Shown: in pieces, positions 6,496 through 53,479 of the stretch
Layout of the letters: the number at the start of each line of letters is the position of its first letter
Position numbering within the stretch: position 1 is the stretch's first letter
IMG/VR virus record: IMGVR_UViG_2706795958_000001
Location: 1 to 64,000 of that record
DNA length: 64,000 nt
Strand: one strand, 5' to 3'
Origin: a virus
Taxonomy: Duplodnaviria; Caudoviricetes
Notes under the pieces: model-generated
The model's database searches: none
What the model saw: only the letters and a program-made list of their open reading frames with translations
Told to the model about the DNA's origin: nothing
Made by a program: the position numbers and the translations under genes

Positions 6496-8519
6496 TGCCT
6501 CCCCGTAACAAAAAGGTCGGCGTTCTGAAATCAAACCCCATTCAGGCACCACGACCTAGAATCGCCAACAATAACTGGGGAACCGGTGGCAACAATCCGC
6601 CCCCGGATAATACCGCATGGCTGATCAATAACCCGGAATTCGATGAGAAACCGGCTACTATGGAACAATTTCTGGGGCCGGGTTATCTTGATATGGACCC
6701 GACTCAGAACCCTAATCTGCCTAAGGGTGTGGGAATTCGACCTGGTGTTAAGCAAGCGTTGATAGACATTTTTGGCGATGATATTGATCCCGAGTGTGTC
6801 TCTGTTGCCCGGCGCGCAATGTTTACCGGTGGTATCGGTGTCGGTAAATCAACGCTAGCGGCTGTTGCGTTGAGTTACATGGTGCATTGGGTTTCGTGTC
6901 TACATGATCCGCAGGCATATTTCGAGCTTCTGCCCGATTCGCCTATTGCCTTTATGATTATGTCCACCAAGGCAACTCAGGCACGAGAAGTCCTGTTCGG
7001 TAAAGTCAAAGCTATGGTGGAGAACTCAGTATGGTTCAAAGCCAACGCTCTGCCTAACCAAGGCAAGGGTGAATCGAACATTAAGAATCAGTTGCGATTC
7101 CCGCGTCATATTTGGCTAGTGCCTGGCACATCAGAAGAAACTGCATTCGAGGGTTATGACATTCTCGGTGGAGTGATTGACGAGGGTGATTCCCATAAGC
7201 AAACGGACACAAAGGATTACGCCGAGGCAGGCTGGAACACTATCGAGTCTCGTATTTCGTCTCGATTTACTGATCCTACACGCGGGGATACGCGCGGTCT
7301 TCTGATGGTCATGGGCCAGATGAAGAAACAAGACGGGTTCATGGCCCGCAAAAAGAAAGACCTGGAAAAAGACGACAAGGCCGTTGTCGTCTTTATGAAT
7401 ATCTGGGAGTCTCGCGGCAAGGAGTACTACCGTAATCGTAAGACGGGTAAGATTGAGGTATTCCATTTCGACATTGTTCGTAAGGTCATTGTGCCGCCAC
7501 TTGCGGCGCAAGCCGTGCAGTCACCCAATATCATTGAAATCCCGGTAGCTTACAAAAAGGATTTTGAGAATGATCCGGTTAAAGCTCTCAGAGACCACGC
7601 TGGCATTCCTCCAGCAGTCGAAGATCCGTTTATTACGGCGGTCGACCGTATCGACGACGCACAGAATAAATGGGCCGAGCGATTTGCCGATATCAAGTAT
7701 ACGGTTGATTCCGATACCACTAACCCAGGCTTTCATCCAGATTTCTTCGCAACAGACGCTCTTAAGCGAGCTATACACGTTGACATTGCATACGCGTCTC
7801 ATGGAGATGCAATGGGCATGGCGATGGGGCATGTTTCGGAAATCGTTGATGTTGACGGTGAAATCAAGCCGTACATAGTCATTGACTTTTTGCTACGTAT
7901 GAAACCATCCGGTGGACAGCAGCTAATGCTTAGTGACTTCCGTCAGATTATCTATAACATTCGTGACGACCTAGGATTCAAGGTAGGCGTTGTTACCTAC
8001 GACGGATTCCAGTCGGTTGACTCTGTGCAGATTCTCAAGAAAAAGAAGTTCAATACTGCCGAGCTTTCTATGGACAAAAAGAAGGGTCCGTATGAGGATT
8101 TGCGTCAGGCTATCTATGAACGCCGTATTGAGTTTCCGGCATATCTGACGTATCTGAATAAGGGTGATTTGGAAAAGGTTAATATCGTCAAGAAAGAACT
8201 GATGGAACTTTCTGACGTTGGACTGAAGATTGATCACCCGCCAAATGGATCGAAAGACCTCGCGGATGCGCTGGCCGGAGTTGTGCATGTATTGATGGGT
8301 AACAATTCCTACCGTCGTGGTGCAGCGCGCGGTGATCGCAAGGTACCACTTATGGAAGACGATCAGGATTTGTCACAGATTTCTGTAGCAGAAAAATTGC
8401 CTGATGATGTAGAAAAGCAATTGGCTAAGAAATACGATCCGTTTACTAATGATCTTAGTAATCTAGGTCTGCCCCCCATCGAGCGAGACCCATTTAAGCG
8501 CTTGCGCATGGGCAGCTAG
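6495..8519 (+). CDS. terL: Terminase large subunit
   Basis: Walker A MFTGGIGVGKS, Walker B VIDEGD, RNase H-like HVDIAY...KDLADALAG; precedes portal. Confidence 0.93.
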   Translation: MPPRNKKVGVLKSNPIQAPRPRIANNNWGTGGNNPPPDNTAWLINNPEFDEKPATMEQFLGPGYLDMDPTQNPNLPKGVGIRPGVKQALIDIFGDDIDPECVSVARRAMFTGGIGVGKSTLAAVALSYMVHWVSCLHDPQAYFELLPDSPIAFMIMSTKATQAREVLFGKVKAMVENSVWFKANALPNQGKGESNIKNQLRFPRHIWLVPGTSEETAFEGYDILGGVIDEGDSHKQTDTKDYAEAGWNTIESRISSRFTDPTRGDTRGLLMVMGQMKKQDGFMARKKKDLEKDDKAVVVFMNIWESRGKEYYRNRKTGKIEVFHFDIVRKVIVPPLAAQAVQSPNIIEIPVAYKKDFENDPVKALRDHAGIPPAVEDPFITAVDRIDDAQNKWAERFADIKYTVDSDTTNPGFHPDFFATDALKRAIHVDIAYASHGDAMGMAMGHVSEIVDVDGEIKPYIVIDFLLRMKPSGGQQLMLSDFRQIIYNIRDDLGFKVGVVTYDGFQSVDSVQILKKKKFNTAELSMDKKKGPYEDLRQAIYERRIEFPAYLTYLNKGDLEKVNIVKKELMELSDVGLKIDHPPNGSKDLADALAGVVHVLMGNNSYRRGAARGDRKVPLMEDDQDLSQISVAEKLPDDVEKQLAKKYDPFTNDLSNLGLPPIERDPFKRLRMGS

Positions 8520-52042: not shown

Positions 52043-52345
52043 TTACTCATCCTCGGGTGCATCAACCTCAGGCTCAGTAGGCTCAGGAGTAACCGTCTCG
52101 GTTTCGGTCTCGGTAACCTTGACAGTCTCGGTAACAGTTTCCTCGGGTGCTGCATTACCGGGATCAACAGCCGGGTCGCCCCCGACCATCGGGATGAATG
52201 GCGGGCATGGTGCGGTACCACCTTCGATAACCATGACGCACGGCTTGGCCGGTGCGGGATCATCGCTAACAAGAGCGGTACCAACCGCTGCAAAAACAAC
52301 GGAAGATGCGGCGGCAATCGGAACAACGAGCTTCTTAATATTCAT
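52043..52345 (-). CDS. Exported or membrane-anchored Pro/Thr/Glu-rich protein
   Basis: Signal-like N-terminus, Cys pair, TETV repeats. Confidence 0.65.
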   Translation of the reverse strand: MNIKKLVVPIAAASSVVFAAVGTALVSDDPAPAKPCVMVIEGGTAPCPPFIPMVGGDPAVDPGNAAPEETVTETVKVTETETETVTPEPTEPEVDAPEDE

Positions 52346-52374
52346 AACGTTTCTCTTTTCTGCAATGTGTTAAT

Positions 52375-52479
52375 AAAAGGGAGGGGTAGGTCATGTGTAT
52401 CTCAACGAAATTCCGCGCCCAGTACTCGCCTAACGCGCAAATACACATCGTTACCGCAAGTTCGACCTACGCCCTTTTT
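52375..52479. ncRNA. Putative structured RNA element, copy 1
   Basis: Stems GTAGGTC/GACCTAC and ATGTGTAT/ATACACAT; intergenic; related to copy 2. Confidence 0.5.
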
Positions 52480-52480
52480 A

Positions 52481-52571
52481 AACCGGGTTGGAATGCACTC
52501 CCATGAAAACACATGGATCGTGAACCAGCCTTACGAATACATTCCCATTACCGGCATGGGACGACCCGGTT
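52481..52571. ncRNA. Putative structured RNA element, copy 2
   Basis: Stems AACCGGGT/ACCCGGTT, GGAATG/CATTCC, CCATG/CATGG, CCCAT/ATGGG. Confidence 0.5.
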
Positions 52572-52584
52572 AGACGATTAATGC

Positions 52585-53355
52585 CTAGAAAGGCATGTCA
52601 TCGTCATCTGCTGCTGCCGGTGCCGTAGCCGGGGCCGCTGGCGGTGCTGCCGGGGGAGCGCTCGGGGGCGCTACAGCGGCGGGCGGGGCTGACGGCGGGG
52701 CTGCGGGCGGGGCGGCAGGTGCAGCGGCAGGCGGGGCGCTTGGGGGCGCTGCCGGTGCCGATGCGGGAGGCGCGCTCGGCGGGGCGCTCGGGGGCGCTGC
52801 CGGGGGAGCCGATGCAGTCGGAGCGCTCGGGGGCGCACTCGGCTGCGTTGCAGGTACCTGCGAAACAGGGGGATTAGCCGCCGTATTGTTCATGGCAATA
52901 CCGGTAAGCTTGGACCCACGAATTTCTTCGTAAGTCTTCATCTGACGGGTAACGCGCTCATCAACAAAAACGTTGGGCTGATTAGTAACCCACTGCTTTG
53001 CATAGTTGGCCCATTCGCCTTCAAGCTGGGAAAGATTCAGGTAGTCATTCCCAGTCTTAGACTTCTTCCAATCCATCTGAATTGCAACGGCCTTGCCGAT
53101 ATACCGGCTAAGGTTATCGACAACCTGCTTATTCATCCAGAGAACACTCAGGTACTTGTCCTGTGATTGCAGGTCAAGAATATCAAGAATCAGTCCCATT
53201 TCTCCCTCGGGAGACTTAGAATGCTGAGTCTTAATCGGACCAACCTCATCGACAACATAGACCAGCAAAGGACGAGTTGCCAAATCCTTTGCCTTAATAC
53301 GGTCACCGTTTTCAACGAGTGCTGACCCTGAGAATTCTTCCAGTTCCATTGACAT
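52585..53355 (-). CDS. Single-stranded DNA-binding protein with Pro/Ala linker and acidic tip
   Basis: OB-like N-terminal domain, APPSAPP repeats, C-terminal DDDDMPF like bacterial SSB-Ct. Confidence 0.7.
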   Translation of the reverse strand: MSMELEEFSGSALVENGDRIKAKDLATRPLLVYVVDEVGPIKTQHSKSPEGEMGLILDILDLQSQDKYLSVLWMNKQVVDNLSRYIGKAVAIQMDWKKSKTGNDYLNLSQLEGEWANYAKQWVTNQPNVFVDERVTRQMKTYEEIRGSKLTGIAMNNTAANPPVSQVPATQPSAPPSAPTASAPPAAPPSAPPSAPPASAPAAPPSAPPAAAPAAPPAAPPSAPPAAVAPPSAPPAAPPAAPATAPAAADDDDMPF

Positions 53356-53479
53356 GGATTTCTTCTTTCTTTTTTCTTTTCCATACTGCACGTAATTACT
53401 TACGCGCTCCCCCCTATCCAGGTCGGGGTCGGGGAGGGGTCTGTGAGCATGGTGTTAGCTGGTCTTACGACGCTGTTAG

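Follow-up and report, generated by a model that had tools for sequence, protein, structure and literature searches.

Does the gap between two minus-strand genes of an actinobacteriophage hold a functional RNA, and if so, of what kind? The gap lies in the window analyzed here, a stretch of 64,000 nucleotides that comes from a virus genome of 80,650 bp carrying direct terminal repeats and is 97% identical to Gordonia phage Gibbles (Orchidvirus). A first-pass annotation, made from the letters of the window, had described in this gap a tandem pair of related multi-stem elements of about 100 nt. The motifs and stems that it listed are all in place, namely the shared 8-mers at 52428 and 52528, the shared 6-mers at 52451 and 52548, and the inner and outer stems of both units (Table 1). 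Read on the minus strand, the words common to the two units are blocks that do not vary within the family described below, namely the end of P1 plus one G, the CGGUAA of J1/2 and the start of L3. The decisive feature, a covarying pseudoknot, was absent from that description.

The Gap and Its Flanking Genes

The gene upstream of the gap encodes an SSB-like protein in which Pro/Ala-rich repeats cover about 70 residues and which ends in an acidic tail that we take to be typical of SSB C termini. This protein matches phrog_14234, with a weak match to DUF669 in addition, and its homologues in Camerico and GMA3 are encoded two genes upstream of the elements of those phages. On the other side of the gap, the start codon of the downstream gene is found 40 nt past P1 of unit 1. 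A small hairpin at the upstream edge holds the stop codon of the SSB-like gene in its loop and 3' arm, and one of its loop bases is changed in Gibbles. This hairpin is not followed by a U-tract, and the terminator scan made no call on it.

Table 1. Positions of the two units, their parts and the flanking features in the window, together with the related variant unit of contig L062 (positions of that contig)
Feature	Position	Strand	Remarks
Intergenic gap	52346-52584		239 bp, between two minus-strand genes
Upstream gene	52585-53391	-	268-aa protein, Pro/Ala-rich linker, acidic DDDDMPF tail (SSB-like)
Small 5-bp hairpin	52581-52596	-	Overlaps stop codon of the SSB-like upstream gene
Unit 2, diverged variant	52481-52571	-	P1 formed by 52564-52571 with 52481-52488
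Unit 2 inner stem	52535-52545 with 52490-52500	-	
Unit 2 retained blocks	52562-52566, 52548-52553, 52528-52535	-	
Unit 1, canonical family member	52386-52470	-	From P1 5' strand to P1 3' strand
Unit 1 P1 5' strand	52464-52470	-	Pairs with 52386-52392
Unit 1 J1/2	52449-52463	-	Includes pseudoknot 5' strand, 52456-52461
Invariant block CGGUAACGA of unit 1 J1/2	52448-52456	-	A2 columns 21-29, invariant
Unit 1 P2 5' strand	52439-52448	-	Pairs with 52393-52402
Unit 1 P3 hairpin	52414-52437	-	Stem strands 52433-52437 and 52414-52418
Unit 1 loop L3	52419-52432	-	14 nt; pseudoknot 3' strand, 52424-52429
Unit 1 J3/2	52403-52413	-	Variable linker
Downstream gene	52043-52345	-	100-aa protein, N-terminal signal-like segment
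L062 variant unit	6943-7003		Analogous to unit 2

Unit 1 Belongs to an Uncatalogued RNA Family

Unit 1 is 85 nt long, or 97 nt including its flanks (52380-52476), and scores 86.1 bits (E 5e-22) against the covariance model R1, with all helices and blocks present. It is the only strong R1 match in the 80.6-kb genome. A BLASTN search with unit 1 and two relatives located the core in about 58 phage records. The carriers among Gordonia phages are the Gibbles, Jumbo, Woes/Nimi13/Harambe, Chidiebere and Stormageddon lineages, the UBSmoodge/FlyingTortilla/ScarletRaider and GTE7/GMA7/Austin groups, and GMA2, GMA3, GMA6, Camerico and DumpTruck/Zany; the others are Tsukamurella phage TIN2 and the Mycobacterium abscessus prophage prophi79-1. 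These matches fall in unannotated intergenic DNA, once per record, barring a couple that clip the end of a neighboring gene. R1 likewise gave one strong match (76–96 bits) in each of six complete genomes; weak second matches in Jumbo and Stormageddon lie in coding DNA and were rejected.

Three exact-pattern scans of viral contigs returned mostly chance matches, and a combined degenerate pattern performed better, yielding more copies in IMG/VR, in one Streptomyces assembly, on two Pseudonocardiaceae MAG contigs and in soil and other metagenomes. The Streptomyces copy (L045:1815-1911, on a contig of Streptomyces sp. NPDC012769) has very AT-rich flanks within a high-GC assembly and a helicase-like gene downstream, a setting that suggests a foreign island, either prophage or plasmid.

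A search of Rfam 15 came up empty in the gap even with E values up to 10, and over the full window no family reached its gathering threshold. ARAGORN reported 0 tRNA or tmRNA genes in the window, and none of the D, anticodon and T arms comes after the 7-bp outer stem of unit 1. These empty searches agree with the first-pass annotation, which could match the pair to no tRNA, known ribozyme or riboswitch. A literature search that included the Gordonia phage genome papers PMC5559632 and PMC4524720 found no prior description of the family. Unit 1 belongs to an uncatalogued pseudoknotted RNA family of actinobacteriophages, with members of about 85–95 nt.

A Covarying Pseudoknotted Fold

The fold was examined in alignment A2, a plain MAFFT alignment of 36 distinct copies made without fitting to the structure, in which unit 1 is row 1; one of the 36 rows, the L057 copy, comes from an unpublished genome and is the sole basis of no claim made here. 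The element is closed by P1, a helix of 7–10 bp. P2, of 10–11 bp, abuts P1 on the 3' strand, and on the 5' side the 15 nt of J1/2 are inserted between the two helices. P2 carries the 5-bp hairpin P3 with its 14-nt loop L3, and six nucleotides of J1/2 pair with six in L3 to form the pseudoknot. Such an arrangement implies two side-by-side helical stacks, for which the variable linker J3/2 would serve as the hinge.

Over all helices, 89.1% of the cells of A2 are paired compared with 70.9% in shuffles, and double changes are found at 24 of the 31 pairs. The covariation score is 0.488, against 0.157 for shuffled alignments, with none of 500 shuffles reaching the observed value, and sliding the partners lowers it to at most 0.11. 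The pseudoknot itself (columns 16–21 with 51–56) is paired in 99.1% of cells and compensated at five of its six pairs, the two-sided changes occurring in the UBSmoodge/Zany/ScarletRaider/prophage group, TIN2, Camerico and GMA6 and further in the Streptomyces copy and several metagenome copies. P2 is paired in 95.8% of cells with double changes in 9 of 10 pairs, and P3 in 97.2% with four of five pairs compensated. The four innermost pairs of P1 vary little or not at all, and covariation is seen in the pairs beyond them (columns 8–9 with 103–104, with 15–21 double changes). About 21 columns of A2 are invariant, and these hold unpaired or junction nucleotides. Once homologues are added, the structure of unit 1 is thus far beyond chance, its loops conserved and its stems compensated as had been proposed for an RNA from the two copies in the gap, and the covariation on which that proposal depended is present in the 36-copy alignment. 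Single-sequence folding z-scores on the minus strand are modest (-2.1 and -1.8). We regard it as very nearly certain that the minus strand encodes a genuine family of structured RNA.

P1, P2 and P3 were also recovered by RNAalifold without guidance. The program proposed in addition that the invariant block CGGUAACG folds as a 2-bp mini-hairpin with a GNRA-type loop as its cap. Since the block is constant in canonical copies, covariation has no bearing on this predicted mini-hairpin; a single substitution, from C to U, is found in the two variant units described below, where a G-U pair would survive. The linker J3/2 measures 11–24 nt in A2, contains an insertion of ~62 nt in L111 and accommodates a GNRA-capped hairpin in L062, and this tolerance of insertions resembles the optional domains of ribozymes and riboswitches.

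Two further observations concern single parts of the element. The trinucleotide CCG is enriched in J3/2 (A2 columns 67–88), where it occurs in 15 of 36 copies compared with 7.1 in shuffles, a count inflated by related sequences. CCG is complementary to the CGG that never varies in J1/2, and the two may touch in an additional contact. The copy in Zany (L032:1492-1584) is degenerate, with the 5' half and the pseudoknot intact and the 3' strand of P2 missing, and it scores 51 bits, against 76–96 bits for other copies.

Strand and Coding Potential

The first-pass annotation had called the strand unresolved on account of conflicting G-U pairs. The element is co-oriented with the upstream gene at every annotated locus, and its firm helices contain 46 G-U pairs versus 20 A-C pairs when read in this sense; at one P2 position (columns 38/90) a U-G pair is present in 18 of 36 copies. 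Given this co-orientation and the excess of G-U pairs, the RNA sense strand is the minus strand of the window, and unit 1 is read from it within a leftward early/replication operon. The same asymmetry is expected for a lagging-strand template if the genes run with the fork, and it is therefore compatible with a signal in single-stranded DNA as well.

Open reading frames across the element are sporadic and occur on either strand. Conserved translation of the plus-strand ORF 52367-52573 had been named as a finding that would remove the RNA interpretation; this ORF is absent in Gibbles, at 97% identity, and in other members. A short protein-coding ORF was rejected because substitutions track base-pairing rather than codons. 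Stimulation of stop-codon read-through or frameshifting, which was considered in view of the short stop spacing, was also rejected, as no reading frame is kept through the element.

Unit 2 and the Tandem Pair

Unit 2 is the second-best R1 match in the window, full-length and on the same strand as unit 1. Its score of 15.1 bits (E 0.078 for the window) is by itself below significance, and R1 scores of 15–17 bits occur in coding DNA of other phages. The model aligns P1, the J1/2 blocks and P2 of unit 2 and skips the P3/L3 core. Because 15-bit scores also arise by chance, support for unit 2 rests on context: it abuts unit 1, keeps three invariant blocks in order, shows a U-G to C-G change in its inner stem when compared with Gibbles, and has a counterpart in a second tandem pair, in contig L062. 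The pseudoknot potential of unit 2 amounts to 3 bp, with an alternative 7-bp pairing between J1/2 and J3/2. Of the tandem related pair that had been claimed, unit 1 is therefore firm and unit 2 weaker, given its score and the many gaps in a two-sequence MAFFT alignment of the two units.

A unit analogous to unit 2 is carried by the metagenomic phage contig L062, which is otherwise unrelated to the window. At L062:6943-7249, behind a Sak4-like gene and a gene for a 215-aa protein with an acidic tail and all on one strand, a compact 68-nt variant is followed by a 65-nt spacer, a canonical unit and, 3 nt later, a tRNA-Lys(UUU). No homology was detectable between the SSB-like upstream genes of the window and L062. 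The L062 variant could form a 5-bp pseudoknot. The two variant units differ from canonical copies in the same three ways: the C of GGUAAC is replaced by U, the loop contains the word AAGGCU, and the P1 3' strand opens with AACC rather than GACC. Two scans for variants of the unit 2 type returned L062 and otherwise chance matches in coding DNA, and an inspection of 20 other phage loci found no tandem second unit beside the canonical one. We take unit 2 for a probable diverged paralogue without the canonical P3/pseudoknot core. In a family that is single-copy, this phage lineage and L062 are exceptional in having a tandem pair.

Genomic Context

The element starts no more than 15 nt after the upstream stop codon in 25 of 35 members, and the distance to the next ORF ranges from an overlap (about -9) to about 176 nt. 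In an all-against-all BLASTP comparison the neighboring genes, upstream and downstream, fell into lineage-specific and mutually unrelated groups. Most loci are in replication/recombination modules with genes for SSB, Sak4/RecA-like proteins, Cas4-type exonuclease, RusA, MazG, DNA methylase and helicase, and the prophi79-1 locus is near lysis genes rather than replication genes.

In the Woes, Chidiebere, Stormageddon and GMA2 lineages, the next gene begins close by, with its ribosome-binding site and its start codon about 25 nt beyond the element. In GTE7 a strong sigma-70-type promoter, with 10 of 12 hexamer matches and an extended -10 TG, is found about 15 nt past the element (L025:1605-1633), and the same holds in GMA7 and Austin; a promoter in this position indicates that the element ends a transcription unit in that group. 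In prophi79-1 (L031:1590-1636) a long terminator hairpin, the base of which overlaps the weak P1 3' strand, stands directly after the element and is followed by a convergent gene for a 371-aa protein, an arrangement also seen in L061, L063, L069 and L107. Long perfect hairpins lie behind the element in Jumbo and GMA3. A U-rich run after P1 is confined to the window, Camerico and the Streptomyces copy, and a simple terminator scan made no call at the element site in the window.

Some 21 nucleotides stay the same in phages that infect at least five host genera, the neighboring genes are unconserved, the spacing to the upstream stop codon is tight and the distance downstream is free, with surroundings there that in many cases indicate where a transcription unit ends. 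From these features we infer that the element is an autonomous module that would need only to be transcribed. Its invariant core would then be either catalytic or recognized by machinery common to all hosts.

Possible Functions

Our leading reading, which we hold tentatively, is that the co-transcribed element marks or processes a transcript boundary. It would fold right behind the terminating ribosome and, once folded, would cut the polycistronic RNA, direct a cut in it or fix its 3' end, and the upstream message would thereby be uncoupled from what follows. The promoter behind the element in GTE7 and the terminator with a convergent gene in the prophi79-1 group are consistent with such a role, as are the tRNA-Lys in L062, the strong hairpins in Jumbo and GMA3 and the U-rich runs downstream. 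However, an element with a general boundary or stability function should recur many times in each genome, and here it is found once; the Woes, Chidiebere, Stormageddon and GMA2 lineages, with a ribosome-binding site so close behind, show no sign of a transcript end; and the element has no known ribozyme core, while the terminator scan is empty at the site in the window. The single copy argues against a generic stability element, and it keeps both catalytic and polymerase-binding readings alive.

The element might represent a new RNA class, either a self-cleaving ribozyme with a novel fold or an RNA that, in the manner of put, would reprogram the RNA polymerase of actinobacteria; we consider this possible, though doubtful. 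Small self-cleaving ribozymes are common in phages, among them twister, pistol, hatchet, twister-sister, hammerhead and HDV-like forms. The element shares with these ribozymes a size within 50–100 nt, stabilization by a pseudoknot, a concentration of invariant nucleotides in junctions, an intergenic site independent of its neighbors, optional variable stems and, at times, an occurrence close together. Each known class has a conserved core and helix order of its own, such as the three-way junction of the hammerhead, the nested double pseudoknot of HDV and the double pseudoknot of twister. No Rfam model of a known self-cleaving ribozyme class matches in the gap at E up to 10. Compared with HDV and pistol, the 3' strand of the pseudoknot is within the P3 loop and the order of the helix strands differs, and the hammerhead core is lacking.

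The putL and putR RNAs of HK022 and the EAR of Bacillus are cis-acting antitermination RNAs that are folded and lie within operons, upstream of terminators. They are co-oriented with the genes, occur in one or two copies per genome and have no dedicated neighbor gene. The element is like them in being folded, intra-operon, co-oriented and of low copy; it bears no likeness to them in sequence or architecture, put consisting of two simple stem-loops. An RNA for processive antitermination, which would stay with RNA polymerase and carry it through terminators down a long early operon, is in our judgment unlikely. A single copy, co-oriented within the operon and independent of the flanking genes, is what such an RNA would show. 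Jumbo, GMA3, the Chidiebere group and the M. abscessus prophage group have strong hairpins or terminators a short way behind the element, and an invariant core would fit recognition of a conserved host enzyme. In the prophage group, however, the terminator closes a convergent pair of genes, where read-through looks counterproductive, and the GTE7 group has a promoter in its place.

We attach a similarly low probability to a stable RNA that would be released from the mRNA and act in trans, either as a protein sponge or decoy, Y-RNA-like or directed at defense, or as a base-pairing small RNA. Transcription alone would suffice for such an RNA, which fits the variable downstream context, and in L062 the element adjoins a tRNA gene; on the other hand, the element is without a promoter of its own. 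Three features mark Y RNAs and YrlA: the motif GNCGAAN0-1G close to the 5' end, a domain that resembles tRNA, and a same-strand Ro/TROVE gene no more than a few kb away (PMC4201824). Y RNAs also have a terminal stem formed by the 5' and 3' ends and a large internal loop, as does the element (PMC4201824). The block at the end of P1 resembles their Ro-contacting motif, and Y RNAs are known in actinophages. The element has no tRNA-like domain, however, and identity with the Y RNAs was rejected: the positions of GNCGAAN0-1G vary in A2 (columns 15–17), no Rfam Y-RNA or YrlA model matches, TROVE/Ro (PF05731) is absent from the genome, and the vWA protein encoded beside the GMA6 copy is of the MoxR-partner type.

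That the element is a riboswitch or other ligand-sensing leader controlling the downstream gene appears very unlikely. Its compact pseudoknotted fold and invariant junction nucleotides would suit such a role, the tandem pair recalls tandem aptamers, and copies of the Woes group have a P1 3' strand overlapping a stretch that could pair with the ribosome-binding site of the next gene. With downstream genes that are unrelated or convergent, a leader-type riboswitch is nevertheless a poor fit; the spacing to these genes is as variable as described above, in the prophage group the strand of the element carries no gene downstream, and the possible pairing in the Woes group and the U-rich tails of three lineages have no design in common.

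We give a similarly small probability to a signal in single-stranded DNA, for example a site where primase or a primosome is loaded, or a portion of an origin. Such a signal would fold on the lagging-strand template, which carries the mRNA sequence where genes and fork run the same way. The single copy and its usual place in a replication/recombination module, near SSB-like, Sak4/RecA, helicase and Cas4 genes, accord with such a signal, and strand asymmetry alone cannot separate it from RNA, but a covarying pseudoknot, invariant loop nucleotides and conserved wobble pairs are typical of RNA tertiary folds, and the copies in M. abscessus prophages adjoin lysis genes. The RNA-based prophage origins of cluster A phages are likewise non-coding and transcribed in actinophages, and they are linked to DNA replication (PMC7157519). 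Those origins measure about 400–500 bp, lie beside parABS, are transcribed against parA and are required for the plasmid prophage state (PMC7157519). We rejected a relation to them on size (the element is about 90 nt), position and orientation, the element being co-oriented with the genes; unlike these origins, it also occurs in phages described as lytic.

That the gap holds no functional element, only chance hairpins or the 68-codon plus-strand ORF that spans it, is a reading to which we give practically no weight and which the covariation in A2 refutes for unit 1, since, for all the modest z-scores, the ORF is not kept, substitutions follow the pairing, and the element is conserved across very distant phages with unrelated flanking genes.

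Significance of the Family

Actinobacteriophages are among the most densely sequenced phage groups, and their non-coding RNA content is almost unannotated; the copies described here all come from DNA that the annotations leave empty. Phages of Gordonia, Tsukamurella, Mycobacterium, Streptomyces and Pseudonocardiaceae have here retained a well-supported tertiary fold, a constraint usual in ribozymes, riboswitches and RNAs that dock onto core machinery. For phage annotators the family is a feature to add, and for RNA biologists it is a ready candidate that comes with an alignment, a model and clear compensatory mutants. With tractable hosts and existing engineering methods, its function is directly testable. 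If the element did prove to be catalytic or to modify the polymerase, it would define a new class of such RNAs, present once per genome in many actinophages, including prophages of Mycobacterium abscessus.
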